Shown piece by piece: positions 1-50,109 of a DNA stretch of 50,109 nt (the first letter of the stretch is position 1; each line of letters begins with the position of its first letter). The stretch comes from Shigella phage pSf-2: sequence record KP085586. One strand, 5' to 3'. The translations under genes and the position numbers were made by a program. Below the pieces are notes generated by a model. The model saw only the letters and a list, made by a program, of their open reading frames with translations. It was not told the DNA's origin and did not search any database.

Positions 1-204
1 GATGTTATCACTGAGATCGCAAAGAAGAACAAAGGGCGCGCGCCTATTCATAGTATTGTTGCAAAGTGCCGGAACGTTACGCCGTTCAACGGTCAACAGA
101 AAGTATCTGAGCGAATCGACAGCCTTCTGATTACGCTCGAAGAGATGAACTACACTTGCCGCATTGATGATATTGTTTTCATCAATCCTCGACTGATGGG
201 TTAA
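1..204 (+). CDS. 3' end of a CDS entering from the window start (5' truncated); hypothetical, possibly the C-terminus of the P-loop protein at 48745..50109 if the molecule is circular
   Basis: Frame 1 open from nt 1 to TAA at 202-204 (...INPRLMG*); no start codon inside window. Confidence 0.4.
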   Translation, partial: DVITEIAKKNKGRAPIHSIVAKCRNVTPFNGQQKVSERIDSLLITLEEMNYTCRIDDIVFINPRLMG

Positions 205-208
205 TTAT

Positions 209-616
209 ATGCTTCTTCTTTTAGATCTGTTCAGGTTCTGCGAAGGTTACGACAAATACACTCGTCAGCACATAGCGAAATTTATATACGCCCACAAGGA
301 AAGTGAGCGATTTGCTAAGGCCGCCGGGATGACTCACCGTGAATTTACAAGCGCGCTATCTAAGGAGTTTTGCGCTCGTTGCGTTACTGATGGTTACTTG
401 GATCGTAAGGATGGATTTTACTGGTGCAAGGGAAAGATCAAGCGCCCGGTAATGATGAAGCTGATGTGTATTGATGGCTACAACAATCGATATACGTGGG
501 AAATGATGCATATTGGAGAAATGAGTGATGAGGAATTGTTTGGCGAACGTAGAAACGTTGATAGATCGGAACGTCGAATTGTGCGCAAGACTCCAGCTTA
601 CGAAAGAAGAATTTGA
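209..616 (+). CDS. hypothetical protein (3' part doubtful)
   Basis: 135-codon ORF; C-terminal 30 aa low complexity and overlapped by 528..728 in another frame. Confidence 0.3.
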   Translation: MLLLLDLFRFCEGYDKYTRQHIAKFIYAHKESERFAKAAGMTHREFTSALSKEFCARCVTDGYLDRKDGFYWCKGKIKRPVMMKLMCIDGYNNRYTWEMMHIGEMSDEELFGERRNVDRSERRIVRKTPAYERRI

Positions 617-728
617 ACAAGGATTGCTCAGTCTATTGCTTACTTCTATGAGGGCAAATAACGACAGTGAGCACAATCTTTGCGATCAGGAGGGCGAATT
701 ACTCCTCCATGTAAAAAGGCACAAATAA
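528..728 (+). CDS. hypothetical small protein
   Basis: ATG 528 with ggaga 8 nt upstream; ends at TAA just before terminator hairpin; overlaps 209..616. Confidence 0.35.
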   Translation: MRNCLANVETLIDRNVELCARLQLTKEEFEQGLLSLLLTSMRANNDSEHNLCDQEGELLLHVKRHK

Positions 729-731
729 GAA

Positions 732-754
732 AGGAGGCTAAGCCTCCTTTTTTT
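732..754. terminator. Rho-independent terminator (hairpin aggaggc-taa-gcctcct plus T8), between convergent genes
   Basis: 7-bp GC stem, 3-nt loop, T-run on + strand; stop of minus-strand spanin gene lies in the stem. Confidence 0.6.
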
Positions 755-1142
755 CGCCCTTACGAATTGAAAAATAAACCAGCAACAGACCAATGAGAAC
801 GAGGGTCCAACCAACTATAGGATCATACCAGTTTCCGGGCTTAGTCACAGTGATGCTTTCAGCGTTAACCGTGTTGGCCTGAATGGTTGACACTTCAATT
901 GACTTCTTCACGGAAGAGTCAACCTTTCCTACATTGGACTTTTCAACTTTAACATCTCGCTTATCTTCGGATTTTGCGGTTACTCCTGCTAATTGCTTTG
1001 TGTTCTCCTCCCCAATCTGTGCTGTAACTTCAGGCTTAGATCCTATTAAACCGCTCAGGGCAGATGCCGTCGAGCAACCTGATAGAGAAATAACACCAAC
1101 AGACACTACAATCGCAACGCACTTTTTCTTCAGTTTCATCAT
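738..1142 (-). CDS. unimolecular spanin-like lysis protein (OM lipoprotein with C-terminal TM anchor)
   Basis: N-terminal lipobox LSGC after signal peptide, C-terminal hydrophobic helix [13 protein letters not shown]; directly downstream of endolysin; architecture as in T1 u-spanin. Confidence 0.65.
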
Positions 1143-1627
1143 AATTCCTTAACGCAATACGCGTATTCTTCAGCGCGTCTGTTCTTGAGTCCTCTAGACA
1201 CTTCGCGCTTTTTGGTTTTTGGGTTGTAGTAGTATACCCATCGCCATAACTGATTGCACGCTTCCCTGTGCTTACCCTGATTTATTAGCTTAAGCATTGT
1301 AGAAGATCCGAACGCGCCAGTACCAACGTTGAAAGTAAAGCTATACAATGACGCGCGCATCGTTACAGGAATATCAACATTCACCTTTTTGTCTACGTAT
1401 CTCTGAGCAACGCCGATGTGTTTTATCAACAAAGCATCGCATTCTCGCTTAGTGTATTTCTTACCAGGTATGACGTCCGGCCCGGTTATTCCGCTGCATA
1501 CGGTAGGGACTCCGGCGATATCGTAATAAACCTCGTATTCTACACCTTCGATTCGTTCCAGTAGGGTAGGCGTCAACGTCAAAGCTGCCCCGATCGATGC
1601 GCCTATAACGTTATTTTTTAAACTCAT
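1139..1627 (-). CDS. endolysin, GH24 phage lysozyme (possible SAR type)
   Basis: Catalytic E-x8-D-x5-T pattern ([22 protein letters not shown]); hydrophobic N-terminus; ATGA overlap with spanin gene. Confidence 0.8.
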
Positions 1628-1842
1628 TATCTCCTCCTGATCTTAAGCGCCTTATTTAGATCGCCATCGTTTAACGCTTCCTGAATTGCCTTGCTATCGC
1701 GATACTTCCAGTACGCTCCCCAAGCGCCAAAAAGCAGAAAGCAAATGAATGTAGCGCCAGCAATATAAAGTTGACCTGTCGCCGCCCCCACCAACGAAGC
1801 ACCGCCCGTGCTTGACGTAGCTGCTGTTAAAAATTCTTTCAT
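1627..1842 (-). CDS. holin (start moved to internal ATG)
   Basis: 71 aa, one strong TM segment, charged C-terminus KALKIRRR; ggtgag SD 5 nt before ATG 1842; track start 1869 is TTG. Confidence 0.55.
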
Positions 1843-1979
1843 AATCTCACCATATATTTTTTTGAACAAGTGAGTCGATTTTAACCTTCAAATTTACTTG
1901 ATACAACGCAAAAAGGCCAGCATGTAAATCATGCCAGCCTGTAAGGTGATGAATGATATTGTTAATCTATCTCAATAAA

Positions 1980-2138
1980 TTACAGGTAGTAACCATTCAG
2001 AGGTGCTTGGATTACTGAGCCTCTACCGTCGTAAATCTCAAACAATCCCCAACCGAAATCATAACCAACACTATAGATCTGATTTACGCGGAATGGAAGT
2101 GTTTTGGAGTTATTTCGGATGCACTTAACTCGTTTCAT
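1980..2138 (-). CDS. hypothetical small protein (52 aa, not in ORF track)
   Basis: aaagagg SD before ATG 2138; sits 57 nt downstream of motif copy 2196..2213 with tatagt box. Confidence 0.35.
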   Translation of the reverse strand: MKRVKCIRNNSKTLPFRVNQIYSVGYDFGWGLFEIYDGRGSVIQAPLNGYYL

Positions 2139-2195
2139 GATATGTAGCCTCTTTGTTTTTGATGTTGTTACTATACCCGAATCCCTTCGGGCGTT

Positions 2196-2213
2196 TTTAT
2201 CAATTAGTGCGAT
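2196..2213 (-). promoter_or_regulatory. degenerate copy of 18-bp dyad motif (tttatcaattagtgcgat on + strand)
   Basis: 15/18 match to tttagcaattcgtgctat; tatagt 22 nt downstream on minus strand. Confidence 0.4.
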
Positions 2214-3355
2214 CCTGTCATTTCTGGACGGTAGATGAATCGACCTATCTCACCAAATTGCTTGTCGTAAACGATTACCGCCGCCTGACGATATGAGCGC
2301 CACCCGCCGCGCGCGGCGTATGCATCCTTCGCTCCTAACTGACCGTGAACCTCATCGATACCTAACGAGTGTTCAGTGATTGTCTGATGATGCCAGTGAC
2401 CGCTATGAGTATACACATACTTGCTCTCTCCGAAGTCTGCACGGAAGTCTGCCGCCATCGCTGCAAGTCGCGTGTCTGCCTTTTTCATAGTGTGCCCGTG
2501 AGTGTATCCCAATAAGGTGTTTCCCCATCGAGTCTTATGCAGAATCATAGGGCTAACGTCAACGAATACTCGCGGCTCGTCTTCATAATATGCCGACATT
2601 GCAGCACGTAGCCAAATCATCCCGGCCTGGTCGTGGTTCCCTTCAATAATCTGAACCTCGACTTCTTTGTGTTTCATAAGCATTTTGTCGATAGCGCGAC
2701 GCACAGAACGGATCGCAACATGCACCAATTTTGCGTATCGTGAATCCTGATCCAGAACGTGACCGCTTGCCGGGGTAACAGCATCAAGACCGTCCGAGTG
2801 AAGGAAGTCACCGCCAATTAACAGAACAGCCTTCTCTGCGTTAGGGGCAATATCGATCGCGTAATTGAAGAAGTCGCCAAGCACTTTTTCAGCTACGTCG
2901 GTAGAGTAGTTCTCTCCGCATTCATGCTTGTGAGCAAGCGCACCAATATGAAGATCGAATACCGGATAGAGTGCCAGCTTACCAATCTCTGTCGTAAGCC
3001 CTTGCGAGGTTAGTAGCTCGGTTGGCTTTGCTCGCGGCAGGTCTTCACAGAATGCAATACGCGCCGCTTCCATCATTGCCGCAATCTTCTCACGGTCCTG
3101 ATCGGTTTTTACCCAGCGCACTACCTCGGTCCCATCGCCGCGAATCATCGTCGACGTGCCTTTTACCATGAATCCCTCTGGCACGTTTTTAGCAACATGC
3201 TCGTTACCGTGAAAATGACCTTCTTTTGCCAGCTTTGCATGGCGCGCTTCAACAGTGCGAATGTGCATACCGTATTTTTCCGCGATTTCGCGAAGTGTTA
3301 GGCCGCTCATGCGCTCTTCAATAAGTTGCTCGGTGGTGATTTTAGCTTGTGACAT
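2204..3355 (-). CDS. HTH domain fused to calcineurin-like metallophosphoesterase
   Basis: N-terminal HTH (LTLREIAEKYGMHIRTV); phosphoesterase motifs FDLHIG, GGDFLHSDG, EGNHD, GYTHGH, HSGHWHH. Confidence 0.75.
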   Translation of the reverse strand: MSQAKITTEQLIEERMSGLTLREIAEKYGMHIRTVEARHAKLAKEGHFHGNEHVAKNVPEGFMVKGTSTMIRGDGTEVVRWVKTDQDREKIAAMMEAARIAFCEDLPRAKPTELLTSQGLTTEIGKLALYPVFDLHIGALAHKHECGENYSTDVAEKVLGDFFNYAIDIAPNAEKAVLLIGGDFLHSDGLDAVTPASGHVLDQDSRYAKLVHVAIRSVRRAIDKMLMKHKEVEVQIIEGNHDQAGMIWLRAAMSAYYEDEPRVFVDVSPMILHKTRWGNTLLGYTHGHTMKKADTRLAAMAADFRADFGESKYVYTHSGHWHHQTITEHSLGIDEVHGQLGAKDAYAARGGWRSYRQAAVIVYDKQFGEIGRFIYRPEMTGSH

Positions 3356-4201: not shown

Positions 4202-4443
4202 ACGATCGTATCTGCTTTAAGTTCCTCTACGTCTTTCTGGATAATTGAAGGCCAATTCTCGATATGTTCATTTTTTATCTCATCGAAAGACATATCAAGA
4301 GAACTAGTGAAATCCCACAGATCACAACCAATAACATCCTGAGTCAATCCGTTTCGCTCCATAATTTCGCAGCACGTAGCTCGATAAAGTAGCCATAAAC
4401 CTTGATCAGTTAACTTAACAGGAATCATTTTCTCGTTCATCAT
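4192..4443 (-). CDS. hypothetical protein
   Basis: 83-codon ORF, ATGA overlap with upstream methyltransferase gene. Confidence 0.5.
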   Translation of the reverse strand: MMNEKMIPVKLTDQGLWLLYRATCCEIMERNGLTQDVIGCDLWDFTSSLDMSFDEIKNEHIENWPSIIQKDVEELKADTIVQH

Positions 4444-5224: not shown

Positions 5225-5637
5225 TTCATCATTTCGTAAATTGCGATCTTGAATTGCTCAAATCCGTAAGCCACCGCAGAGAATCCACCGCGTTCGCGAA
5301 CCTTACGGAGAAATTCCTTTTGCTTATCGCTGACTGGCGATGCCTTTCCTTTGCCGGACTTATTACCCCGCTTGAGTTCTATTGCTGCAAACGGGTATCG
5401 TGAGTTGACACCAATCAGGATAACGAAGTCTGACACGCCTTTAAGTAATCCGGCTTGCTCATCCCTGAGCGCCGATGTGATTGTTTTTCCACCTTCATTG
5501 ACAGTGTGCCAAAATAGAAGGTGAGGAAAATTGTATTTCAGCCAGGACACGCAATCCACCTGATGAGCATCCTCCTTTCGAGTATCGCTGGGATCTCGCT
5601 CGTAAAACTCTAAATAATCACCTTTGTCTGTAATCAT
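5221..5637 (-). CDS. VRR-NUC domain nuclease
   Basis: C-terminal pattern DFVILIG...AIELKRG...SDKQKEFL typical of VRR-NUC fold. Confidence 0.7.
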   Translation of the reverse strand: MITDKGDYLEFYERDPSDTRKEDAHQVDCVSWLKYNFPHLLFWHTVNEGGKTITSALRDEQAGLLKGVSDFVILIGVNSRYPFAAIELKRGNKSGKGKASPVSDKQKEFLRKVRERGGFSAVAYGFEQFKIAIYEMMK

Positions 5638-8259: not shown

Positions 8260-9195
8260 GTGAACGAAGAATTTATGATGTTTCAGAAAGAGGACGTTTT
8301 GCCGTACATGAAGGGGTTATGGCGCGAGGCTTTCCAATCAATCTGCGGATTGCCGAATGATGTTTTTAATAAGAAACACCAACCTTGCCCTAACTGCGGG
8401 GGTAAGGACCGCTTTCGCTGGACTGATAACCTTAACACTCCGGGCGACGGCGGTGCGATCTGCAACTCATGCGGTAACGACTCTGGAGTCGGTTGGTTGA
8501 TGAAATTAACTGGTATGCCGTACAGCGAATGTATAAATATCCTGGGAAGATTTCTCGGCAAGGTTCCGCAGGAATACATTGTCAAGGCCAACAAAAAAGC
8601 GCGAAGAACTCCGGTAGCTGGCGTCAATGTTATGATGGCAGAACACGAGGCAGTGATGAAAGTTATGGAGCGCACAGAGAAGCGCATAAACACACCTCTA
8701 AGCATGTTTGAGTCGCTACCTACTGAATCATTCGACGTTGGCGTAAAACGTCGAGAGGATGGCGGCGAGAGTGTATTTCACGCCATACCATGTCAACTTG
8801 TACACGAGGACGGTCTTGATGAAGAGTTTTGCAATATTTTGATTATTGATGAGGAGGGTAGGGAGTCATTTTATGCAAAGAAATACACAAGTTGCTCGGT
8901 TGCCGTGACTGGTAAAACTGAAAAAGCGATCTACTTATGCCTTAATTGGATTGATGCTCAGCATATTGCATTTCACACAAAGCAAGAGGTATGGGCCTGC
9001 TTCACTCCTGAAAATCTAGAAATGGTTGCGTACAGATACAAGGGAGATCGGGAGGTAAGGGTGGCGTGCGAACCATCTGATAAAGAAACTTTATACATGG
9101 CAGACGACAGACAATTAAAAATAATCATCCCGAATCAGGGAGGATACCGCTCAGGAATGCAAGCTAAGTTATTCTCAGCAAGTGATCTACTATAA
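8260..9195 (+). CDS. primase-type zinc-ribbon protein (putative DNA primase)
   Basis: CPNCGGKDRFRW...CNSCGN Zn ribbon as in P4/T7-type primases; start may be ATG 8275 not GTG 8260. Confidence 0.5.
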   Translation: MNEEFMMFQKEDVLPYMKGLWREAFQSICGLPNDVFNKKHQPCPNCGGKDRFRWTDNLNTPGDGGAICNSCGNDSGVGWLMKLTGMPYSECINILGRFLGKVPQEYIVKANKKARRTPVAGVNVMMAEHEAVMKVMERTEKRINTPLSMFESLPTESFDVGVKRREDGGESVFHAIPCQLVHEDGLDEEFCNILIIDEEGRESFYAKKYTSCSVAVTGKTEKAIYLCLNWIDAQHIAFHTKQEVWACFTPENLEMVAYRYKGDREVRVACEPSDKETLYMADDRQLKIIIPNQGGYRSGMQAKLFSASDLL

Positions 9196-9295: not shown

Positions 9296-11080
9296 ATGGC
9301 TTTATATCGACGCGGTACTGCATCAATGGATGCAGACGGAACGGTTCGCGGAACCGATACAAAATGGAAGGATCAGCTTGCTCTGATTCGAGTAGGTGCA
9401 ACTATCGTATTCCTGGAACAACCGATAAAGCTGGCTGTAATCAGCGATATCGTGAGCGACACTGAGTTAAAGGCTATCTCTACTGATGGTCAGACTGCCG
9501 CTGACGGTAAGTATGTGATCCTGCTTAACGATTCACTGACTGTTAACGGATTAGCTCAAAACGTTGCTGAGACGCTTCGATACTATCAAAGCAAAGAGAC
9601 TGAGATTGCGGCATCTATAGATCTGATAAATCAGCTTGATATGAATAAACTTGAGCAAATAGTTGCTGATGTGAATCAGGCGAAATCTGATTCTCAAGCT
9701 GCGCAAAATCAGGCTGAATTAGCGCGTGACGCAGCCAACGCTGCACGCGATGAAACTAACTCAATCAAGAATCAGACGCAACAGATTGTTGACGGTGCTG
9801 TCGGTAGCATCAATGCGGCGAAGGATCAGGCTATAACCGATGTGCAGCAAAAAGAAAATTCATCCATCACTCACATTGACTCAGAAGAAGCGGCGGCGAT
9901 TCAGGCAATTAATGACGCAAAAGGCGATCTGTCAGGTTACGTTAATGACGCTCAGACGGCAGCACAAACGGCGACCTCTGCAAAAAACGACGCTCAGGCA
10001 GCGCGTGACGATGCGGTAAGCTCAAAAGATGCGGCTGCGGTAAGTGCTCAAGAAGCAAAAGACGCAGCTAACAGCATCAATGCTGAAAATCTTTTAACTA
10101 AGGATGGCAATCTAGCTGGTCTTGAGGATAAAAAAGAGTCAAGAAAAAATATTGGGTTAGGTGAAAATGATGCTGTTAACTTTCTTACTATTAACACCAC
10201 TGGCGCTATAGGTGCAGGAAGGAATTCATGGGACGGTTCTAGCTGGGGTAGTCAGTCCATATTGTCATCATTGATGATTATGTCACCTGATGGAATATCT
10301 ACGCCAGGTATTTACGTCAGAAAAGAACGTAGCGATAATGGTTATGCTGGGGCTTTATTATTTTATGAGGGGGCAAACTACTTCGAGACTAACAATAGAT
10401 TCAGGGCCAATCAGTTTTTATGCCAGAAAACAGCTATGGGTTATAACCAGATGTGGTCTGCTTCATGCTTCCAGGGTAATGCTTACACCGCTGATAGTGG
10501 TGCTGAAAACTATCAATCACTTATTGCTGGATCGTGTGACACCAGAGGTCAGGGATACGCTGGCGGCGTAGCATTTGGCATGATGACTACGGGTAATCCT
10601 GAATGGCCCAGGGCACAAATATCAGTAGGCGCTCAAGATAGGGATGGAGTAGGCAATATTGGTCTGCAAATGCATTTCAGGTTTATGGCTTCAGGGCAAA
10701 TATCTTACGCTGGACCGCAAGTGGCTGGAAGTTTCCAACAGGTTCCGGCATCTGACAGAAATATAAAGCACAGCATAAAGGATGATGAATCAAGCATTGC
10801 ATACAACAACATAAAATCAATGAGATTTAGGAACTTTATATTTAACGATGATGAGCAAGAAAGGGTAAGGAGAGGTGTTATAGCTCAGGAGATAGAAGAG
10901 ATCGACAATCTATATGTTAAGAGAAGGGTGTATGAGAGCCACGAGCTAAACGGGCCAAAAGTTGAAAGGCTTGAGCTTGATACAACTCCTTTATTGCTTG
11001 ACACTATGAGAGCTTTACAGGATACAATAAAGAAAGTTGAAGAGTTACAAGAAGAGATAAAAATGTTGAAGTCCAAATGA
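9296..11080 (+). CDS. tail fibre protein with C-terminal intramolecular chaperone (peptidase S74-like) domain
   Basis: Ala/Gln-rich coiled N-part; C-terminal SDRNIKHSIK...GVIAQEIEEI autoproteolytic chaperone signature. Confidence 0.8.
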   Translation: MALYRRGTASMDADGTVRGTDTKWKDQLALIRVGATIVFLEQPIKLAVISDIVSDTELKAISTDGQTAADGKYVILLNDSLTVNGLAQNVAETLRYYQSKETEIAASIDLINQLDMNKLEQIVADVNQAKSDSQAAQNQAELARDAANAARDETNSIKNQTQQIVDGAVGSINAAKDQAITDVQQKENSSITHIDSEEAAAIQAINDAKGDLSGYVNDAQTAAQTATSAKNDAQAARDDAVSSKDAAAVSAQEAKDAANSINAENLLTKDGNLAGLEDKKESRKNIGLGENDAVNFLTINTTGAIGAGRNSWDGSSWGSQSILSSLMIMSPDGISTPGIYVRKERSDNGYAGALLFYEGANYFETNNRFRANQFLCQKTAMGYNQMWSASCFQGNAYTADSGAENYQSLIAGSCDTRGQGYAGGVAFGMMTTGNPEWPRAQISVGAQDRDGVGNIGLQMHFRFMASGQISYAGPQVAGSFQQVPASDRNIKHSIKDDESSIAYNNIKSMRFRNFIFNDDEQERVRRGVIAQEIEEIDNLYVKRRVYESHELNGPKVERLELDTTPLLLDTMRALQDTIKKVEELQEEIKMLKSK

Positions 11081-11083
11081 TAA

Positions 11084-13886: not shown

Positions 13887-14117
13887 ATGAAAAAGTTAAT
13901 CACCATTATCACCGCTGCATTCATCCTGACTGGTTGTGCTCAGAATCTTAAAAATGGCGACTGCGTTACTTACGCGTACGGCTCTTGCATGATGCGATTC
14001 GTTGATGGTAAAAAGGTTCCGGCTGGCGAAATTGACATGCGATTCAAAGGTCTGTCATCCGACGACGATCAGGGTAACTTTAGCGGCAAGGTATCAATCA
14101 AAACTAAAGAGTGGTAA
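13887..14117 (+). CDS. small lipoprotein, Cor-like superinfection-exclusion candidate
   Basis: Signal peptide with lipobox LTGC; 76 aa; lies next to J gene on opposite strand as cor does in FhuA-dependent phages. Confidence 0.55.
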   Translation: MKKLITIITAAFILTGCAQNLKNGDCVTYAYGSCMMRFVDGKKVPAGEIDMRFKGLSSDDDQGNFSGKVSIKTKEW

Positions 14118-14119
14118 TT

Positions 14120-15076
14120 ATGGGGCAAGGAATATACATAAATCTAAATGACGGTCGCCCGGCAATGGAGATAACTTCAGGGCTTCGCGCCCCGTCATGG
14201 TGCGGACCTATACAGGCTGACGGGGTTGATTCATCTGGATCGGTTTTTGATTTTGGTTTGCAAATGAGTCCAGGGTCTACTGCTTTTTGCCTTCCATCTC
14301 AGGCTATCTACATAGACGATATGGATTACATCCCGGAGGTGTATTATTTGACCAGTTTTCAGAAGGTCAATGATTCAACCGGACGAATAACGGTAGGTAA
14401 TTTTAACGGGCACGGTGGAAGGAGGATGAGATTTTATGGCAACTGTTACGAAATCCTCCCCGCTCAGGCTGGAAGTCAGGGGATACTTGTTAACGATTCA
14501 ACGAACTTCGCAGCGATACCGAATAACGCCAGATTGATGAGCGCTGCATTTGTTGGGGGTATTCAGGTTAACGGTCAGGCTCAGTTGCCAGTACAGGGCG
14601 TTCCTTTCGGTATGTGGGATAATCCAAACGTAACACTTGAATCTGACGGCAATACAATATGGTGCAGGGATGCAAACTATAACGGGATTGATGACGTTGG
14701 CGCGAGCGTATACGTTCAACTCGTAATATTTAATAACACCCCACCACCTCCCGGCCCTGGAATCACTATGAGCAATCCTGCTGGTCAGATCGTTTTCTCA
14801 AGCGTTCGACGTCCTTTTGTTCTCGGCGGGACTATGGCGATAAATGACGGGTGGCAGTGGTGCGGTGGATTTTTCCCAATACTGAGAACAGGTACGATAT
14901 GCAGAGTTACAGGTGGATATAATAACATTCGATACAAGGGCGTTTGCATGAGCGGCGGTAACGTGAGAAGCACACCCGGAACAAGGGTGGGTAACTATTC
15001 AACCCAAAGCGGAGCGCAATTCCCTTTCAATATAAACATTTCAATGCCAATTCCTTTCACTCCAAACATGTATTAA
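14120..15076 (+). CDS. hypothetical protein co-transcribed with lipoprotein (Gly/Asn-rich, PPPPGPG linker)
   Basis: ATG 14120 three nt after upstream TAA; track start 14111 is GTG; followed by bidirectional terminator. Confidence 0.55.
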   Translation: MGQGIYINLNDGRPAMEITSGLRAPSWCGPIQADGVDSSGSVFDFGLQMSPGSTAFCLPSQAIYIDDMDYIPEVYYLTSFQKVNDSTGRITVGNFNGHGGRRMRFYGNCYEILPAQAGSQGILVNDSTNFAAIPNNARLMSAAFVGGIQVNGQAQLPVQGVPFGMWDNPNVTLESDGNTIWCRDANYNGIDDVGASVYVQLVIFNNTPPPPGPGITMSNPAGQIVFSSVRRPFVLGGTMAINDGWQWCGGFFPILRTGTICRVTGGYNNIRYKGVCMSGGNVRSTPGTRVGNYSTQSGAQFPFNINISMPIPFTPNMY

Positions 15077-15100
15077 AAAAGGGGCCAATCGGCCCCTTTC
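15077..15100. terminator. bidirectional Rho-independent terminator
   Basis: aggggcc-aatc-ggcccct hairpin flanked by A-run and T-run. Confidence 0.6.
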
Positions 15101-15102
15101 TG

Positions 15103-18100
15103 TTACCAGACACCAACAACCACTCGACCACCGTTAGGTAGGTTAACCGTGATCCCGTTATTGTTTATCTGAACTGTGTTATTTGTTCCGTTAAATGCAA
15201 ACTCTCCGTTATTTGCGTAAATTCTACCCCTCACTGTTGCATTCATGAATGAAGCGTCGCCATTCTTGTTTATGGCCCATCCATTATTCCCATCCCAATT
15301 GTTAGATTGAATCCAGTTTCCAATCATGGCATTAGTAATAAATCCATCCTTGATGATCGCGCTACTTAAAATAACCTGACCATTCTCAACAACAAAAGGA
15401 TATTGAGTCTGACCATTCATTCCTGTCATGATGGCAAATCGTGACGCCTCGAATAAGATTTGCGCCTTAACCACAGCGCCTGAACCAATCAGAGACATAG
15501 CCATACCAGCACTGTATTCTTGGCCGTTATACTTCAGACCGAGCTTGACTCCGTACATTGCACCAGTCGAATCCGCATTGCTCCACGAATCAAGTTTTTG
15601 AGAAAGTGCCGCCTCATTATTCCCAAGCCTCGCGCTTAATGACAAGTCAGCTTGCGTTCTCGCCTCAGTCTCGTTTGCTATAGCCTCTCTGATATCAGTC
15701 AAACTTGCCTGAATATCATCACCAATCTCTGCCCTGAGTTGGTCAATTTCACGCGATAGCGCTCCGGTTTCAGTTGCGATAACTTCACGCAATTCGCTAT
15801 TGCTTGCGCTAATCTGATCACCAAAACTTGCCCTTAACTGCTCAACTGCTGTTACTCGCGCCTCAGTCTCATCAGCAATTAGCTTCAGTGATTTGGTGTA
15901 CTCTGCTTTTCGTTTTCCGTTCTCCTTCTTCATGTAGATCGCGTCTTTGTCATTAGCTAGAGCGTTCTCAATTGCTGCCTCTGCGTTCGCTGCGTTCTGC
16001 GCCGCGTTGTCGGTTGCGTTATCAACAAGCCACTCGTAACCCGGCGAGTTTTCGATATCGACAGAAATCTCTCCAATGATATCGTCAACGTTTGTTGATG
16101 CCATGCCTCTGACAAAATCAGTCCACTGAGACGCGTTACCGATCCTGTCAACCGTCCTTACCCGATACCACACAATATTCCCTCCCGGCATCGGTGAGTG
16201 ATAATACTCATGCTGCGGATACGGAATCAAAGAAAGCAAACTTGCGTTATCCACTGTTCCATCCGGTGACTGCTGCAACTCCGTATAGGCCGTATCTCCA
16301 GAACCATCAGAGAACCCCCATTTTGTACGGATACCAAAAACAACATCATCCGTAGCTGTAAGGTTAATCGGTCGGCCCGGTTCACCCTGTTTACCCGTCA
16401 ACGTTGCCGCGACGATATTTGACCAGCCTGAAGTTGTGCCAGAACCAGCGACGGAGCGCACGCGAACCTGATAGTTGCCAGCGTAAATCCCTTCAACATA
16501 AACCTCCTTGTTTGCCGTCTGCGGGACGTTCTGCCAGTTGCCGTTATCCTTTCGCCACTGGACGTCATAGAAAACTGCGTACGGTACTTTATCCCAGCTA
16601 ACAATCATCGTTTCTACGCTCATCCCCTGGACGATTCGTGACTCTGAGGACACTTGCACGTTTTCCGGTCTAGGGATCTGATCTGGTTCAACGATGCTCG
16701 TCGGTCGGTCGTCGATATTAACTCCGTAATCAATCTCATCGTACTTGTTAGGATCGTACTCCACCGCCGTTATTTTGTAGGTAAATTCCTCATCATCATC
16801 GCCCTTGTCGATTTTTGTCACGACGTACTGCTGTAACGCAATGTCGGTGCGGTCGATAGCGAATACCGTGTTAGGCTTCACAGGAAAGCCAAAGCCAATG
16901 TTAACCTCTATAGTCTTACCATCCGCACTAACACTTGATATTGTGCGCTTCACGGGCTTGCCATCTGGCTTATTTACGATAATAAAGTCACCCGCGCGTG
17001 CATCCACCCGGAACGGCAAGAAAATCTGACTACCGGATACTTCGAGCAAGCGCCCTGATAGGTTCATCGTCAAGTTACTTGACCAGAAGTTATCAGCTAT
17101 TGCCACAACATCTCCGATTGTCGGGATCATACCCTCAAGTCCGGTAGCGAAGTTTACCGTAGTGCTGCGGAGGTTAGTTTTCAGAATCCATCTCCCGCGT
17201 CGGTTGGCCTCGCTTCGACGTGTGCAGCCGATCGCTGTAATGCTCGTTACGTTGTTCCCGAACCGTAGAGTAGCCTCACGATCGAATACTGGCTCAACGT
17301 CCTGCTGATACATGTTTTGCTCGTCGTCAAACATCACATTACACGTCGTGTACATGCTCTTTTCGCTTGCAAACGTGTAGGAGAAGTCACCATTAACCAC
17401 GTTGTCGTTAGTGAAGATGTACGCAGGCTCACGCGGCCTATCGATGATTACCGAAATGCTTTCGCCATTCCAAAAGCTCATACCTCGAAAGATTGAGCAA
17501 ATATCTCGAATAACCTTGTAAGCGTCAGTCTGAGACTGGATTATCACGTCGCAAAGGTATCGAGGTTCCGTCCCGCCCTTCCCATCAGGAACCATCTGAT
17601 CGCAATATTGCGCAGCCTCGTAGAGCGCCCATTTATCGACAGCGATACCAAGCTCTTTCTGATCCAAGCCGTAACGCTGATTAATCATCAGGTCATAAAG
17701 AACCCACGCAGGATTATTCGTCCATGCTTTTTTGAAAGTGCCATCCCAATTGCCGTTGTATGTTCGCGATTCTGGGTCGTAGTTCGACGGAACGCTTACA
17801 ATCTTCCAGCGCTTACGAATTGAGATCGTAGGTAACTGGTTTGGGAACATCTTCGAATCGAACTCTACGAAAAGAAGACCAGTCAGAGGATATCGGAATT
17901 TGGCATCAATGACCTCGGCATAGCTTCTTACCTGGATTGCATCAACGACATTCGAGTCATTGGAATCAGGCGTCTTTCGAACAACTCTGAATATTACCTG
18001 ATTGTTGAAGTTAGGCAGGTTTACGCGACGGCTTCGATCATAACCTGACATTGTTTTACCTTCGATTACGTCAGTAAGAACAGTCTCAAACGAACCGCCA

Positions 18101-33065: not shown

Positions 33066-34634
33066 TTACCGCTTAACCATCCCGGCGAGCCGCTTCATTC
33101 TCTCGATAGGATCATCAATGGTCAGCAATTCGATGTTCGCCGCATCCATGAAGTTATCGACGATATCATCATGCGGATGTGTGTCATCGTAAGTGAAGGC
33201 GCTGTGTTCAGCGATAATTTCAGCAAGCATAGGGTGCTCTTCTGGCAGAACCACACGCCCGGCTTTAATAACTGGCTGAGCATCCATAGCTCGGGTAACT
33301 TTGTCTTTGTTACGCTGCAACGGAGTGATAGAGATCGGAGTCTTTTTCCTGAGGTTCTGGATAAGGCCCGTACCGCTCGCTTTATCTTCCACGTAGATTT
33401 TTCGAAGCACGCCCATTGATTTATTGTGTCTCCATGCCTGATTAACGAAAGCGGTAAATTGTTTCTCCATATCCGGCGCTTCCCACTTACCGCGAATGCC
33501 GTCAATAAAGTAAACCTTATCGTTCTTCTTACCCCACAAGCAAAAGACTGTGTAGTCGTTTAGCTCGCCTGTCTTCTGAGCGGTATCGGCAGTGATGAAA
33601 CGGTAGTCGTACTTACCCGGATCTGGTTCGTCAGCGTCAAGGCTGCTGCCGTAATAAGTCCACCATTCCGAGTTAAACACGGAGCCACCAAGCGCGATCG
33701 GCTTCTGCTGATACTGAGAGTCAAAGGTGTACTGGTCAGCTTCGCGAAGCGCTAACAGGTCATGTACACTCTCCTTACTGGGCCAGAACGAGTAATGCTT
33801 GACGCCATCAAGTTCGACATACTCAGACGATAAAACGTCGCGCTCGAAGTAAGGTTGTAACCAGTCAGGAAGCGTCTTTCCGTATTCTTCCGTAACCAGC
33901 GCCGGGATTGAGATCTGGTCAAACTCAATACCCATCCCGCCATTCATCATGAACCATGTTGAATCCTGCGCGTGCAGCCTCTGCTGAATCGCAATAATTG
34001 GCGTCTCGTTGTGCATACGACGCGATCGAATGGTGTTCTTCAGTAGCATATGAGTACGCTCACGCTTAACCTTTGAGAACATATCATCAGGCTTATCGAT
34101 ATCGTCGAGCATCACCATACCGGAGAATCCCGGCATCATGTAGCCACCACGCGAACCAGTAATACGACCGCCAGCCGCTGCGGATATTAGCTCAAACCAA
34201 ACCTTTCCATCGCTATTAAGGACTTGCATCTCTTCGTCCTTCGACGTGCCGAATTTGCAGGGCCATAATTCTTGGAACTCGTTGCTGCTGATAATCTCAC
34301 GCACGCGCTTACTGTTACGCTTAACCAGACTGTCGGCAAACGACACGTTAAGGTTTCGCACCTTCTTACACTTGAGCATCGCGTACACCGGGAGATGTAT
34401 TGAGAACACCTCGGTTTTACCGGAGCCTGGCGTAACGTTAAAGATAGTATTACCGCGTCGGCCTGCAATAATTTCCTCCACTTCGTGGCAGAGGTAAAGG
34501 TGATGCCAGTTAGGCTGGAACTGCTGAGCCTGCATAAGCTGGAACCAGATCCGAATCATTTTTTCGAAATTGGCCTCGCTCATTTTCTTGATCGCTAACT
34601 TCTGAGTTGCGTCGAGTTCTTCCCATTGAATCAT
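33066..34634 (-). CDS. terminase large subunit
   Basis: 522 aa; ATPase N-domain, acidic nuclease-type motifs in C-half; upstream of portal. Confidence 0.85.
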   Translation of the reverse strand: MIQWEELDATQKLAIKKMSEANFEKMIRIWFQLMQAQQFQPNWHHLYLCHEVEEIIAGRRGNTIFNVTPGSGKTEVFSIHLPVYAMLKCKKVRNLNVSFADSLVKRNSKRVREIISSNEFQELWPCKFGTSKDEEMQVLNSDGKVWFELISAAAGGRITGSRGGYMMPGFSGMVMLDDIDKPDDMFSKVKRERTHMLLKNTIRSRRMHNETPIIAIQQRLHAQDSTWFMMNGGMGIEFDQISIPALVTEEYGKTLPDWLQPYFERDVLSSEYVELDGVKHYSFWPSKESVHDLLALREADQYTFDSQYQQKPIALGGSVFNSEWWTYYGSSLDADEPDPGKYDYRFITADTAQKTGELNDYTVFCLWGKKNDKVYFIDGIRGKWEAPDMEKQFTAFVNQAWRHNKSMGVLRKIYVEDKASGTGLIQNLRKKTPISITPLQRNKDKVTRAMDAQPVIKAGRVVLPEEHPMLAEIIAEHSAFTYDDTHPHDDIVDNFMDAANIELLTIDDPIERMKRLAGMVKR

Positions 34635-34672: not shown

Positions 34673-35197
34673 TTAAAGCATGTCAAGAATACTGTTTACA
34701 GCCTCTTTCATTGCGTCCTCAGTGGTGGCGACTACTGTCGATGCGGAAGCTGCCGAGTTTTCGATATTGATTGAGGCTGGCTTATCGATTCCGAGATCCT
34801 TACCGATAAAGGAGGCGTTAATAACACCGTTGGCGGCAAGCTGGAATTTTTGCTCATTTATTACCGACTCAACAAACTCCATAACCTCACTGTATTCTTC
34901 CTCTCGCTTCCACTTAATGATTGCGGCCTCGCTTGCACCGATAAATAGTCGGTATCCGGTCCAGGTGAAGACGCGCGGCTTATGAACTAGCGATTCATAA
35001 ACGCCACCCTGAAAGCTGGCTGATTCTGACGCCTTGATTGCGTTGTCCTCGGCCCATTCGAAATACTTCACTGAAAGATCGAATAGTTGCTCTGGCGTCA
35101 TCGCTCTGTTTTTCGCGAGTACAGTGCCGAATTTTTTCTTGTATAGCTCTTTGAAATTACCTCCCTGGACTACGGGAGCGTTCTTAGGTTCACTCAT
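34673..35197 (-). CDS. terminase small subunit candidate (start moved to internal ATG)
   Basis: Upstream of TerL; aaagagga SD before ATG 35197. Confidence 0.5.
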   Translation of the reverse strand: MSEPKNAPVVQGGNFKELYKKKFGTVLAKNRAMTPEQLFDLSVKYFEWAEDNAIKASESASFQGGVYESLVHKPRVFTWTGYRLFIGASEAAIIKWKREEEYSEVMEFVESVINEQKFQLAANGVINASFIGKDLGIDKPASINIENSAASASTVVATTEDAMKEAVNSILDML

Positions 35198-35249
35198 AAA
35201 TAAATCCTCTTTGTTTAACATTTAGTGTTATTTTACCATATTGCAGGCA

Positions 35250-37632: not shown

Positions 37633-37743
37633 TTAGCATCTCCCTAAAAATAATTTTGCCATATTGATGATAGTGTGATTGATGATTAACAGGATGATAA
37701 CCGTCAATACCGGATGTGCTGCAATAAATTCGTACAGGTTCAT
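37633..37743 (-). CDS. small hydrophobic protein (36 aa, not in ORF track)
   Basis: ATGA overlap with HAD gene stop, TAA 1 nt before kinase ATG; TM segment PVLTVIILLII. Confidence 0.3.
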   Translation of the reverse strand: MNLYEFIAAHPVLTVIILLIINHTIINMAKLFLGRC

Positions 37744-38273
37744 TCATCTACCCCGTGAGATTTTAAATGATTGTGAACGTTATCGCCATAGTCAACTACA
37801 GCGTAAGTGGTTATCCCAAGCGATCGGAATAATGGAATAATTTGCGGCGAGTCATCCCAGGCCGCCAGAATGTTCTCAATACCGATAGCGCGCACCGCCT
37901 CCTCTTTCATCACCGTATCTTTCCGGTTATCGGTGTGCGGACGCATAATCAGGTAATCATATCGCGCACCGTAGCGCTTTAACCATAACTTTGATTCGTG
38001 ACGCACCTCATCACTACGTCCGGTTAAGATAATGACGTGATAACCCGCAGCAAATAATGAGTTCATCACCTCAATAGTGCTCTGAATAGGATCGTCATGA
38101 TTTGCTGCACGGTTAAATTCAGACCAACTTTCCGTAAGGTGCAAATCATTTGTCGGTAGCAAGTGGAGGCGCTTTGAGCCATCGCTAAGCGTTCCGTCAA
38201 AGTCAAAGATTGCTACGCGGCGCGCGCCGAGAAACAGGTTGATTGTCTGGCCCCAAATTGTGATTTTATCCAT
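37740..38273 (-). CDS. HAD-superfamily phosphatase (Pnk 3'-phosphatase / 5'-nucleotidase-like)
   Basis: DxDGT motif FDFDGTL near N-terminus; HAD-like spacing of later Asp residues. Confidence 0.6.
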   Translation of the reverse strand: MDKITIWGQTINLFLGARRVAIFDFDGTLSDGSKRLHLLPTNDLHLTESWSEFNRAANHDDPIQSTIEVMNSLFAAGYHVIILTGRSDEVRHESKLWLKRYGARYDYLIMRPHTDNRKDTVMKEEAVRAIGIENILAAWDDSPQIIPLFRSLGITTYAVVDYGDNVHNHLKSHGVDE

Positions 38274-43989: not shown

Positions 43990-44047
43990 AATATATCCTC
44001 TTTGTCTATTCGCGTGTAAATGGTGTCATAATGTGTCAACAATTGCC

Positions 44048-44076
44048 ATTGTGACATCTCGATGTAGAGCTGTCAA
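44048..44076 (-). promoter_or_regulatory. sigma70-like promoter candidate (TTGACA-17-CACAAT) for leftward early operon
   Basis: Consensus -35 with 17-bp spacer, 58 nt upstream of ATG 43989; TGTCA/TGACA inverted repeats nearby. Confidence 0.4.
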
Positions 44077-44129
44077 TGCCTGCGAGCCAATTTTAAGCCG
44101 TGTAACATTTGTCTAGCTGTCTATAGCCA

Positions 44130-44390
44130 CTATAGAAATATATGGCTCTCAAAAAAAGTACTGTATATATAAACACTCAGATAGAAATATGCCAACAGTA
44201 CGCTAGACAATGTAAGACAGCTATACACAACTATTACAATATAATTATCTATATATATAAATAAAAAAAACACTATATATATTATATATATACATATATC
44301 TATATGTATATTGTGAGGCGTCACAGTGTGTATTTTTGTCACAAGTGCGATTCTAGACAAATATTACAGTCGTGACAAGTTAAAGTGTAA
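44130..44390. repeat. AT-rich tract with (TA)n/ATATA runs and TAGACA / GTCACAAG repeats; candidate origin or early control region
   Basis: Long ATATATA-type tracts at 44160-44320; repeated ctagacaa, gtcacaag/gtgacaag words. Confidence 0.45.
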
Positions 44391-44393
44391 TCG

Positions 44394-44411
44394 ATAGCAC
44401 TTTTTGCTAAA
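44394..44411 (+). promoter_or_regulatory. 18-bp dyad motif copy (atagcactttttgctaaa)
   Basis: First rightward copy; no clear -10 at 22 bp. Confidence 0.5.
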
Positions 44412-44598
44412 AATGGAGATGAATGCCAGGCGAACCGGGTAACACCAATTCCTCCCTCTCACAATCATTGCATTCTCAGCAACAAATCAACCAACTGTTG
44501 CACACCATGCAATAATCACGTTTCATCATTCGTAATCAATAACAATCAAGATTATTCCACCTATTCCAGTATTGATTGAATAATGAGCAATTATTGGA

Positions 44599-44616
44599 AT
44601 AGCATTTTTTGCTAAC
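44599..44616 (+). promoter_or_regulatory. 18-bp dyad motif copy, variant (atagcattttttgctaac)
   Basis: tatgat about 23 nt downstream, then caaccaatcaggag leader to ATG 44675. Confidence 0.6.
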
Positions 44617-44674
44617 GACTTAGCAAGGCCGATTGGGTATGATTCATCACATCAACCAATCAGGAGCAATCGAC

Positions 44675-44818
44675 ATGACAACTGCAAACATCAACGCAAC
44701 AATTAATCGTTACGAACACATCTATCGCGTAGCGCTGTTCTCTGACATGGCGTTAGCTAACAAGGCGAAGTTAATAATCGACAAACTGAATCACTACAAA
44801 AAGGAGATCGAAAAATGA
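44675..44818 (+). CDS. hypothetical small protein (start moved to internal ATG)
   Basis: aggag SD 8 nt before ATG 44675; track start 44633. Confidence 0.4.
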   Translation: MTTANINATINRYEHIYRVALFSDMALANKAKLIIDKLNHYKKEIEK

Positions 44819-45519
44819 AGTTGATTTGGTCGCTATTCGACGGTTCCGGCCTGGCAGGTCATGAACTGGCAAAGCAAGGTCATAAGGTGATGTGCTTCAA
44901 CTTTGACGGGGCAGATCACGGAGATTACGCAAAGTACAATGCCCGGGTAGAGCATCCGAACATTGAGTATGTGAACGTCTTCATTGATGAGAAGTTCGAA
45001 CGTGATGCGATCGCTGGTGTGTATGGCAAACCTGATTTCATCATGGCTTTCCCACCATGCACTGACCTAGCTGTTAGTGGTGCTCGCCATTTTGCCAGCA
45101 AGCGTGAACGTGATCCGTTATTCCATGAGAAGGCTGTTGCCACCGCTCGGATTGCTGCTAATATTGGCGAAGCTATGGGCGTGACGTACATCATTGAGAA
45201 TCCGGTTAGCGTCCTGTCATCTGCCTGGAGAAAACCAGATCACTCCTTTAATCCCTGGGAGTATGGCGGCTATCTTCCTGAGAATGACTCACATCCCTGG
45301 TTCCCGATGTATATTGCGCCGCGCGATGCTTACCCTAAGAAGACGTGTCTTTGGACCTCGGACGATTTTGTCATGCCGGAGAGAAATCCAGTAAGCCTGC
45401 CTGACGGGTACTCTGCACAGCAAAACAAGCTGGGCGGCAAGTCTGCCAAAACTAAGCTGATACGATCCCTGTCGCCGCGTGGATTTTTCAAAGCGATCGC
45501 AAATAGCACTTTTTGTTAA
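44815..45519 (+). CDS. minimal C5-cytosine methyltransferase-like protein
   Basis: Motif I-like LFDGSGLAG, PC motif FPPCTDLAVSG, ENV-like IIENPVS with canonical spacing; only 234 aa; aaggag SD. Confidence 0.5.
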   Translation: MKLIWSLFDGSGLAGHELAKQGHKVMCFNFDGADHGDYAKYNARVEHPNIEYVNVFIDEKFERDAIAGVYGKPDFIMAFPPCTDLAVSGARHFASKRERDPLFHEKAVATARIAANIGEAMGVTYIIENPVSVLSSAWRKPDHSFNPWEYGGYLPENDSHPWFPMYIAPRDAYPKKTCLWTSDDFVMPERNPVSLPDGYSAQQNKLGGKSAKTKLIRSLSPRGFFKAIANSTFC

Positions 45520-45520
45520 A
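45503..45520 (+). promoter_or_regulatory. 18-bp dyad motif copy (atagcactttttgttaaa)
   Basis: Encodes C-terminal ...NSTFC* of upstream gene; 22 nt then cataat. Confidence 0.7.
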
Positions 45521-45579
45521 ACTCGATCGGTGTGATTTGGCATAATTACCTCATCGAAACGAGATTGAGGAAAAACAAA

Positions 45580-45765
45580 ATGGCACGTCGCATCACTAAA
45601 GACCTTAAAGTCCTGAACAAAGAAAACGTAGTTAAAATTCTGGTTATTTGGGGTTACAACGAAGAATCAGCAAAGCATAAGGTAGAAGCGGGTTACGACC
45701 TGGCTGTCAAGGCAATGCCTAACGACGACGCCAAAGGCATTGTAAACTATGTAGCATTCTTTTAA
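45580..45765 (+). CDS. hypothetical small protein (start moved to internal ATG)
   Basis: gagga SD before ATG 45580. Confidence 0.45.
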   Translation: MARRITKDLKVLNKENVVKILVIWGYNEESAKHKVEAGYDLAVKAMPNDDAKGIVNYVAFF

Positions 45766-45780
45766 TTAACGGGCTAACAA

Positions 45781-45966
45781 ATGAAAACGAAATTAGTGCA
45801 TAAATCAGAAATCAAGATCGGCGATACTGTGATTCACAACGGAGAGCTTAGAACAGTTGGTAAGGAGTCAATAAGCAGAGATGAATTTATGGGGTTATTG
45901 TTGTTCGGCGACTCCTATCGCCTGGGGTGCAAAATGGTTGAGCTTGTTGAGGAAGTAAAATTCTAA
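45781..45966 (+). CDS. hypothetical small protein
   Basis: 61-codon ORF, weak SD. Confidence 0.4.
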   Translation: MKTKLVHKSEIKIGDTVIHNGELRTVGKESISRDEFMGLLLFGDSYRLGCKMVELVEEVKF

Positions 45967-45984
45967 ATAGCACGAATTGCTAAA
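45967..45984 (+). promoter_or_regulatory. 18-bp dyad motif copy (atagcacgaattgctaaa)
   Basis: Starts right after TAA of upstream gene; 22 nt then cattat; leader shared with copy at 5207. Confidence 0.7.
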
Positions 45985-46048
45985 CATGCCGGAATGGAAT
46001 CTGGCATTATTACTTCATCGAAACGAAACATCAAAACAGGAATCGGAA

Positions 46049-46231
46049 ATGAAAAAGTTAACATCAAACACAAAATATGAAATTATTGACGGTGAAGCTA
46101 TTATTTATGCTCGCGCGAAAGGATCAAATAAACTAACAGCCGCATTCAAATGCCACCCAGCGACAATTGATCTCATCAAAGAGTATGGATTCAAGTCGGC
46201 TATAAGCAAGTCGTTATTATGCAAGGCTTAA
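46049..46231 (+). CDS. hypothetical small protein (start moved to internal ATG)
   Basis: aggaa SD before ATG 46049; track start 45977 lies inside motif. Confidence 0.45.
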   Translation: MKKLTSNTKYEIIDGEAIIYARAKGSNKLTAAFKCHPATIDLIKEYGFKSAISKSLLCKA

Positions 46232-46300
46232 CGCTTTGGGTAAAAATATAAACAATGACACACAATACTATAAGTGGGATCTCGTAAAATATTTATCAAA

Positions 46301-46318
46301 ATAGCACGAATTGCTAAA
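46301..46318 (+). promoter_or_regulatory. 18-bp dyad motif copy (atagcacgaattgctaaa)
   Basis: 22 nt (with hairpin ccccga/tcgggg) then tatagt; caaccaatcaggag leader to ATG 46377. Confidence 0.7.
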
Positions 46319-46376
46319 CGCCCCGAAGGGAATCGGGGTATAGTAAACAACATCAACCAATCAGGAGAATCGCCAG

Positions 46377-46607
46377 ATGGCAATCAAACATCCCGGATTA
46401 AAGAAAGCAATCCAGCGAGCCAATGACGAGGGATTTATTGTATATCGAACACATTACGGTCACATGGGTGGACTTAAAGAGCATCATACAAAGGTTGAGC
46501 TTGTGGACTTATGGGAGGATTACGATACATTCCAGTACATCGCCACGTCTGACGTAGAGGCGCAAGTGAAATACATCAATGACACTATTGATAGCTTCAG
46601 AGGGTAA
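46377..46607 (+). CDS. hypothetical protein
   Basis: 76-codon ORF with aggag SD. Confidence 0.5.
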   Translation: MAIKHPGLKKAIQRANDEGFIVYRTHYGHMGGLKEHHTKVELVDLWEDYDTFQYIATSDVEAQVKYINDTIDSFRG

Positions 46608-46611
46608 TTAT

Positions 46612-48251: not shown

Positions 48252-48668
48252 ATGAAATCCATCAAACTTAAATGTACTTCCGCAGACAAAATCACAGGAT
48301 TTGAAGTTAACAACCTTTACAAAGGTCGAGAGCGCTACGATGGAACTCGTGAGGTTAAGTTAAAGTGCGGTAAGTATTTAAAACTTGATAAGCATGATGA
48401 ATTACAGATTCACGGATCTGATGAAATCTTCTTCGCAAAATTCACTGAACTTAAAACCAAAACACTCAAGTGTACCGGGCTTGACCATCGCAACACAATG
48501 AAAAAATCATTCAAAGTTGGCAAGCGTTACCAGGTGGAAAGCGGTCGTGCTCTCGGTGGAGTGGCTGGTTACATCTTTGATGAGGACGGTTGCCGCTGGA
48601 CATTATTCCGCGAAGAGGTTGGTTTTAGTATTGCTGACGGCACAACCTTTGAGGCCAAATACTTATAA
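48252..48668 (+). CDS. protein with tandem small Cys-containing repeats (start moved to ATG 48252)
   Basis: aggag SD; track start 48243 is GTG; repeats KLKCTSADKITGFEV / TLKCTGLDHRNTMKKSFKVGKRY resemble those in 38901..39539. Confidence 0.5.
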   Translation: MKSIKLKCTSADKITGFEVNNLYKGRERYDGTREVKLKCGKYLKLDKHDELQIHGSDEIFFAKFTELKTKTLKCTGLDHRNTMKKSFKVGKRYQVESGRALGGVAGYIFDEDGCRWTLFREEVGFSIADGTTFEAKYL

Positions 48669-48671
48669 CCA

Positions 48672-48689: not shown

Positions 48690-48744
48690 CGCGTGTACCA
48701 TTGGCGGTGTATCATTCACACCGTCAACTAAGGAGTTTATTGTG

Positions 48745-50109
48745 ATGTTTAATATTAAGCCAAAGCTGAATTACCAACAGATTATTGAGATCGCAAATAG
48801 CACTGGAGTGAATCCGGTGGCGATCGCAATTCGTGAAAACAGTTACGGGGATTCAGTTTCTTTTTGGCAAGATCCGATCGATATCAACAGCGGAAACGAT
48901 AAGTTCCCTCTGATTTCGTTAGGTGGCGATAACCTGGTATTCGAATATGCAAAAGCAAAAGCTGAATCAGTCCAGTTCCCGGTTTCATCCGCGTATGCTC
49001 ATTTTATCGGTTGCATCTCAGCCGCGATGCTCGGGAAGTTTTGGGTGCAATATCATGGAGAAGAACAGCCGACAGCGCTTTACATGGTAATCAGTCAGCC
49101 ACCATCAACAGGTAAATCAGCGATTAACTCAGCGGCGATTACACCTATGCGTGCGGAGATTCAGCGACTGAATGAAGAGCGCAAAAAGGAACGTATCCGT
49201 TTAACCAGTCAGCTACGTCAGGTCGAGAAGGAAATAAAAAACGATCCGAAGGGTAACACGACGGCGGCTCTGTACGAGGACAAAGAAAAACTGGAAGAGA
49301 AGATCAAGAAGATGGCTGATATTGTTTTCGCGGTATCAGATCCTACACCTGAAGGTCTTGCGAAAGTGGCGGCAGTGCAAGGTCACTTTTCCGTAATATC
49401 TGACGAGGCAACGGCAATCAATACATTGCTCGGGCTTACGTATGGCGGTTCAGATAAGAAATCTAACAGTGAGCTTATCCTTAAGGCGTGGGATAAAAAC
49501 CATATGGAGGTCGCGCGTTCAAATCAGGACAACAACTTATCTCTTTGCCCGGTCGGTTCGATCTGCGTCATTGCGCAGGATGAAACAATCAAGGGTATCA
49601 TGGATGCAGGCCAGCGAGGTATCGGTGTGTCCGAACGTTTCCTGTTGGTTCGCGAGGAGCCGCTTTTAGGTACTCGTATTCTTTGCGATGAAAATGGCGA
49701 TGCGCTGTATAAGGAAGTCGATCGAGGATTGGTTAGTAAATATTATCGACTCGTTCACAACATCATGAAGGAGGACAACGTTGTTCTCTCTGTGAGCCGT
49801 AATGCTATGCGTGAATTAAACCTTGCGCGCCAGGCGATGGAGCCTGATTTCGCCGCCGGGGGGAAATACTCTCACTCAATGCTTCGCGGTCATCTCGGCA
49901 AGTTCGATAAGCACGCTTTGCGTATTGCTTCAGTTCTACACACGATCAAGAATTGGGAGGGTGAATCACCGAACCGTTCCAACCGTGAGATTGACCTTGA
50001 AACAATGCAGGAAGCGATCATGATCTTCAATGAGCTTTCCAAGACTTATCTGTCGTCTGCCAGCGCTGCCGGGTATGCTGGTGATGAGGCTGAATCTCGT
50101 AAGCTGATT
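48745..50109 (+). CDS. P-loop NTPase, replication helicase/primase-associated ATPase candidate (3' truncated at window end)
   Basis: aaggag SD before ATG 48745; frame open to the last base; Walker A QPPSTGKS, Walker B-like ICVIAQDE. Confidence 0.6.
   Translation, partial: MFNIKPKLNYQQIIEIANSTGVNPVAIAIRENSYGDSVSFWQDPIDINSGNDKFPLISLGGDNLVFEYAKAKAESVQFPVSSAYAHFIGCISAAMLGKFWVQYHGEEQPTALYMVISQPPSTGKSAINSAAITPMRAEIQRLNEERKKERIRLTSQLRQVEKEIKNDPKGNTTAALYEDKEKLEEKIKKMADIVFAVSDPTPEGLAKVAAVQGHFSVISDEATAINTLLGLTYGGSDKKSNSELILKAWDKNHMEVARSNQDNNLSLCPVGSICVIAQDETIKGIMDAGQRGIGVSERFLLVREEPLLGTRILCDENGDALYKEVDRGLVSKYYRLVHNIMKEDNVVLSVSRNAMRELNLARQAMEPDFAAGGKYSHSMLRGHLGKFDKHALRIASVLHTIKNWEGESPNRSNREIDLETMQEAIMIFNELSKTYLSSASAAGYAGDEAESRKLI

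Follow-up and report, generated by a model that had tools for sequence, protein, structure and literature searches.

A DNA helicase gene split between the two ends of the Shigella phage pSf-2 genome record

The sequence record of Shigella phage pSf-2 (KP085586) begins and ends within open reading frames, which raises the question of whether the two are parts of a single gene and, if so, whether the point at which that gene is interrupted is a physical end of the phage DNA or only the place where the record was opened for deposit. The window, that is, the whole stretch of DNA that we analysed, is 50109 nt long (a multiple of 3) and has a GC content of 45.44%. At its right end, frame 1 is open from the ATG at 48745-48747 through base 50109, which amounts to 1365 nt or exactly 455 codons, and an AAGGAG ribosome-binding site (48730-48735) lies upstream of the ATG with a 9-nt spacer. 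At its left end, frame 1 is open from base 1 to the TAA at 202-204, for 67 codons and the stop. Both open frames had been noted in a first-pass annotation of the sequence, and we confirmed them. When the end is joined to the start in frame, the result is a reading frame of 1569 nt that codes for 522 aa followed by a stop; the remaining two frames over the same 1569 nt contain 18 and 44 stops. The record is thus cut between codons 455 and 456 (I455/D456). The genes discussed first are the following.

48745 to 50109, plus strand: 5′ part of the helicase gene (pSf2_083, homolog of T1 ST9), codons 1-455, encoding the N-terminal domain, the MCM-like AAA+ core and nine residues at the start of the winged helix.
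1 to 204, plus strand: 3′ part of the helicase gene, codons 456-522 and the TAA at 202-204, encoding most of the C-terminal winged-helix domain.
209 to 616, plus strand: pSf2_01 (homolog of T1 ST10, function unknown), 135 aa, phrog_2794.

The first-pass annotation had derived the continuous gene from the divisibility of the window length by 3. The in-frame join holds, with one refinement: the join is in frame because the cut falls on a codon boundary, and the divisibility explains only why the two halves carry the same frame label. Phage ISF002 illustrates the point: its record, of 50564 nt (mod 3 = 2), is interrupted at this very base and still rejoins to an intact 522-aa reading frame.

The joined protein matches exactly a deposited one, AIZ95108.1 (YP_009113021.1), which is named "DNA helicase [Shigella phage pSf-2]" and is found on a contig of 50109 bp; according to the genome paper on ISF001 (PMC6667099), it is pSf2_083, the gene with the highest number. 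The right-end and left-end reading frames are, then, one ordinary and previously annotated gene. Immediately downstream, the product of the frame at 209-616 is an exact match to YP_009112939.1 (pSf2_01). This gene starts 5 nt past the helicase stop and is probably co-transcribed with the helicase gene. It lies next to the helicase gene in every relative that we examined, and its cluster is found on more than 800 contigs.

A short open frame can arise by accident, and it could be argued that the two terminal frames belong to different genes, or that part of a gene lies beside unrelated sequence as in an incomplete contig, and that the two happen to fit together. At random, a frame would be expected to remain open over 67 codons with a probability of about 0.04 (over 455 codons, about 3e-10), and nominal agreement of frame is expected one time in three. 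The homologs speak against such a coincidence. Aligned with its relatives, the joined protein proved to be the product of a single gene: T1 ST9 (44517..46085, minus strand) and phiL CDS_0017 each have 522 aa and are about 99% identical to it over the full length. The profile of PHROG 2373 ("DNA helicase") gave one unbroken match from aa 3 to 522 (E 3.6e-234); phrog_7327 also matched, over aa 437-521. Of the 120 listed homolog clusters, which reach down to 35% identity, all but a few shorter entries have lengths of 517-532 aa and 98-100% query coverage, and compared with complete relatives no segment is missing. At the nucleotide level, 90 of the 94 differences from T1 in the helicase gene fall at codon position 3, as do 101 of the 104 differences from ISF002. 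The bias extends to the 204-nt piece at the left end, in which the changed codons are synonymous in 8 of 9 cases against T1 and in 12 of 12 against ISF002. Judged from these substitutions, purifying selection acts on the helicase frame in the right-end and the left-end piece alike. Finally, a 282-nt probe covering the end-to-start junction was found as contiguous DNA, without loss or duplication of a base, in 54 of 58 related records, and a 605-nt junction probe was contiguous in 53 records. The notion of a coincidental join has a negligible probability and is already refuted.

We then considered the genome as a whole. The last 2.1 kb of the window found matches in 88 phage records, all of them T1-like (Tunavirus and relatives, with Escherichia, Shigella and Klebsiella hosts), while the first 25 kb were matched by phiL, ISF002 and Shfl1 at about 93%. 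By blastn, a single circular order is common to the window, T1 (NC_005833), phiL (a circular record) and ISF002, which cover 43.0 (T1), 47.2 (phiL) and 48.6 kb (ISF002) of the 50.1 kb. The two ends of the window map to neighboring bases inside both T1 and phiL: base 1 corresponds to T1 44720 and base 50109 to T1 44721, and in phiL they correspond to 7554 and 7553, respectively. The relatives have genome lengths of 48.8-51.5 kb, and pSf-2 itself is tabulated as 50109 bp, "Circular", with 45.4% GC (PMC6714547, supplementary tables). Our main reading, to which we assign a probability of about 0.97, is that the window represents one unit length of the genome of pSf-2, a virulent T1-like siphovirus (Drexlerviridae, Tunavirus; KP085586/NC_026010), given as a circular record that was opened at an arbitrary base inside the helicase gene. 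The suggestion made in the first-pass annotation that the window is a complete phage genome linearised within this gene is borne out by the contiguous junction, by the collinearity with complete T1-like genomes and by the exact match to the deposited protein. The depositors of pSf-2 had themselves regarded the genome as circular, and their annotation of the gene runs through the origin.

A circular topology would also suit a plasmid-like or integrated prophage replicon, as opposed to a virulent phage that packages by the headful mechanism, and a few near-identical proteins are labelled Escherichia coli. However, the contigs bearing that label measure 46-50 kb, the size of a phage, and pSf-2 was isolated as a plaque-forming lytic phage (PMC5238451; PMC8590004). 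Its genome is collinear throughout with that of the virulent phage T1 and carries a full set of head, tail and lysis genes together with the terminase, and the annotations of its relatives include no integrase, partition or plasmid replication gene. We therefore consider it extremely improbable that the record is circular because the element is a plasmid or a prophage.

The comparison with T1 (YP_003936.1 for ST9) shows that the window helicase has the same position and orientation as its T1 counterpart, which is located between ST8/ST7 and ST10. In contrast to the window, the T1 record is linearised at the packaging end and not inside ST9. The two genomes are collinear and have the same terminase genes, and they also differ directly upstream of the helicase gene, where T1 has the HNH homing endonuclease ST8, which the window lacks. 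As reported for pSf-2, T1's three HNH genes are absent and there is an 1149-aa tail fibre (PMC5238451), and both statements are true of the window. The missing HNH genes are ST15, ST63 and ST8, whose corresponding positions in the window are 2177-2219, 37634-37804 and 48666-48671, respectively. An HNH insertion beside the helicase gene is also seen in Eco_BIFF.

Whether the break could be a real end of the virion DNA depends on how this DNA would be packaged, for which the following features are relevant.

34673 to 35221, minus strand: open reading frame of the terminase small subunit, P22 gp3-type, the pac-recognising component (Pfam GP3_package, 8.5e-10), collinear with T1 ST54.
33066 to 34634, minus strand: terminase large subunit (Pfam Terminase_6C, the nuclease domain, 8.9e-15), collinear with T1 ST53.
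44513 to 44514, no strand: equivalent of the start and end of the T1 record (the T1 pac end), located by alignment to T1.

The large terminase frame codes for 522 aa, which is the length of the helicase too, a coincidence that could cause confusion in matching based on length. The T1 terminase recognises a pac site and packages by the headful mechanism, which leads to terminal redundancy and circular permutation (PMC5238451; PMC6714547), and the T1 record annotates a repeat_region at 1..2800, a 2800-bp terminal redundancy at the packaging end. In the alignment, T1 2-312 falls on window 44512-44214 and T1 48694-48836 on window 44656-44514, so the equivalent of the T1 origin, which is the conventional origin of T1-like genomes, is at 44513/44514, about 5.6 kb from the break, a position placed by homology to the T1 record start only. 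It is contained in an AT-rich non-coding region of about 650 bp (43990-44660) between divergent gene blocks. This region also has a (TA)19 tract at 44274-44311 and several sigma-70-like sites on both strands, and the minimum of the cumulative GC skew is nearby.

Because of the literature on pac/headful packaging in T1-like phages (PMC5238451; PMC13164509; PMC6714547), the annotated T1 repeat_region and the P22 gp3-type small terminase, we infer by analogy that the virion DNA of pSf-2 is terminally redundant and circularly permuted. The window is like the pac headful systems of P22 and T1 in its gp3-like small terminase, its large terminase, its collinearity with T1 and an assembly that closes a circle. 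Following T1 biology, the phage would replicate into concatemers, and the terminase, formed by the gp3-like small subunit and the large subunit, would start at pac and fill heads slightly beyond one genome length. Virion DNAs produced in this manner would be terminally redundant and partly circularly permuted, so that shotgun reads would assemble into a circle, and the point at which such a circle is opened for deposit would have no biological meaning.

An opposing view would take the window ends as real ends of the virion DNA, produced at a fixed terminus or at a preferred headful or secondary cleavage site in the helicase gene, and recurrent in the clade. The records of ISF001 (MG049919) and ISF002 (MF093736) agree with this view, as they start and end at the exact bases of the window. 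Nevertheless, the two phages share a laboratory of origin, the notes in their annotations draw heavily on pSf-2 and their genes are numbered in parallel with those of pSf-2, whereas the other 54 records, produced by many laboratories, have their cuts at other positions and run through the junction. We found no terminal direct repeat or overlap of at least 4 bp between the window ends, and the junction contains neither an assembly-breaking repeat nor a recognisable site, with only 12- to 15-mers recurring. In a T1-like phage analyzed with PhageTerm no fixed termini were detected, and the authors orient such genomes by convention (PMC13164509). Moreover, the circular listing of pSf-2 and the annotation of its helicase gene over the origin, together with the location of the T1 packaging end and terminal redundancy at window 44513, point away from a terminus in the helicase gene. 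A physical end at this position is in our judgment very unlikely. Since the T1 packaging end maps about 5.6 kb away, the break in the window is a convention of the deposit and not a physical DNA end. As for the shared start base, the simplest explanation would be that ISF001 and ISF002 were ordered on pSf-2 and that the base was copied.

Some blocks of the window depart from T1. A stretch of about 2 kb (44657-46610), which adjoins the T1 record junction, is absent from T1 and present in phiL and ISF002. It codes for a second DNA methyltransferase (44815-45519; phrog_757, no Pfam match) and four small open reading frames, the first methyltransferase, a Dam-like one, being located at 4440-5153 (phrog_111). 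Region 13937-15298 has no blastn match to T1 and replaces the T1 cor/ST31-32 region; open reading frames for a putative lipoprotein of 76 aa (13887-14117) and for a product of about 320 aa (14111-15076) are found there. There was likewise no blastn match to T1 for 10151-11081, the variable C-terminal part of a 594-aa tail fibre (9296-11080). Pfam returned no match for the second methyltransferase or for the two frames that flank the helicase gene, all of which were matched by PHROGs, and scans of the whole window revealed no tRNA gene and no Rfam family at the gathering threshold.

We also asked what the reassembled gene encodes. Residues 78-429 of the joined protein match Pfam DUF3987 (PF13148) with 145.3 bits against a gathering cut-off of 27. 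Kazlauskas et al. (PMC4889955) place DUF3987 proteins among the SF6 (MCM-like) replicative helicases, as a divergent group that has a C-terminal wHTH and whose usual partners are AEP or DnaG primases. The conservation of motifs was read from alignments of 26 and 35 sequences. Walker A has the sequence S-Q-P-P-S-T-G-K-S (aa 117-125), in which Q118, P119, P120, S121, G123 and K124 are invariant and S125 is at least 90% conserved. A Walker-B-like motif, V-I-S-D-E, is located at aa 217-221; its E221 is invariant, and D220 is replaced by A in distant members. A further pair, D279-E280, is invariant within V-I-A-Q-D-E. The alignments suggest that either D220-E221 or D279-E280 may act as Walker B. 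[quoted passage not shown] In addition, S296-E-R298 is invariant (the "SERF" motif) and reminiscent of the SRF arginine finger of MCM proteins, making R298 a candidate arginine finger; R303-E304 is also invariant.

A fold search supported an MCM-like AAA+ fold for the helicase; the input for structure prediction was a protein (P0001) 99% identical to the joined one. Searched by sequence against PDB chains, the helicase gave no real match, the best hit (E 0.36) being an unrelated G-gamma subunit, and identity to the MCMs is only 11-15%. Residues 447-516 have the H-E-H-H-E-E topology of a C-terminal winged helix. The cut at I455/D456 lies within the first helix of this domain (447-464), and the 67-aa fragment at the left end is essentially the winged-helix domain. 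Two other replication genes bear on how the helicase might work.

8260 to 9195: zinc-ribbon primase.
5634 to 7652: SF2 helicase.

The window protein differs from other DUF3987/SF6 helicases, for example AgaPH, in that it has no fused AEP or PriCT domain, and its N-terminal ~75 aa are specific to the family. The primase of the window is neither adjacent nor fused to the helicase: the distance around the circle is about 9.5 kb, or about 8 kb when counted from the helicase stop. For a PriCT-DUF3987 protein, which is oligomeric, Walker-dependent helicase activity with 5′→3′ polarity has been demonstrated (PMC11724360), although this studied protein has the extra PriCT domain and is a distant relative of the T1-type protein. 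The product of the split gene is most likely a ring-forming AAA+ ATPase that would unwind DNA at the phage replication fork, with its activity, polarity and oligomeric state predicted from these similarities. It would cooperate with the separately encoded zinc-ribbon primase (8260-9195), and the C-terminal winged helix probably serves in binding DNA or a partner.

The position of the cut has left traces in later records. ISF001 and ISF002 are the only related records that have the first base of pSf-2, and in both the helicase gene is split. In ISF002, the last CDS ends at 49123 and the first starts at 209, with no CDS for the helicase. In ISF001, the helicase is annotated only as a 273-aa stub (49188..50009), which is due to an in-frame stop that takes the place of C273, just before the invariant IAQDE motif. 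The differences between the helicase genes of ISF001 and ISF002 are grouped in two clusters, at gene nt 751-900 and 1201-1350, one of which includes the stop, and neither shows a bias toward the third codon position (4/7/4 and 5/11/3 differences by codon position). The clustered substitutions in ISF001 are probably sequence errors near the end of the record rather than the outcome of evolution.

The phage genome, the gene that spans its origin, T1-type packaging and the DUF3987 family have all been described previously, and our results add no new biology; their practical value concerns annotation quality and data hygiene. When a record is opened at an arbitrary point within a gene, software that assumes linear sequences overlooks that gene, and the two truncated reading frames in the first-pass annotation arose because the record was linearised in this way. 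The cut made in pSf-2 also propagates: ISF001 and ISF002 reused its start base, and as a consequence the helicase went un-annotated in ISF002 and was reduced to a stub in ISF001. Orienting T1-like genomes to the T1 origin, which in the window corresponds to 44513/44514, avoids splitting the helicase gene.
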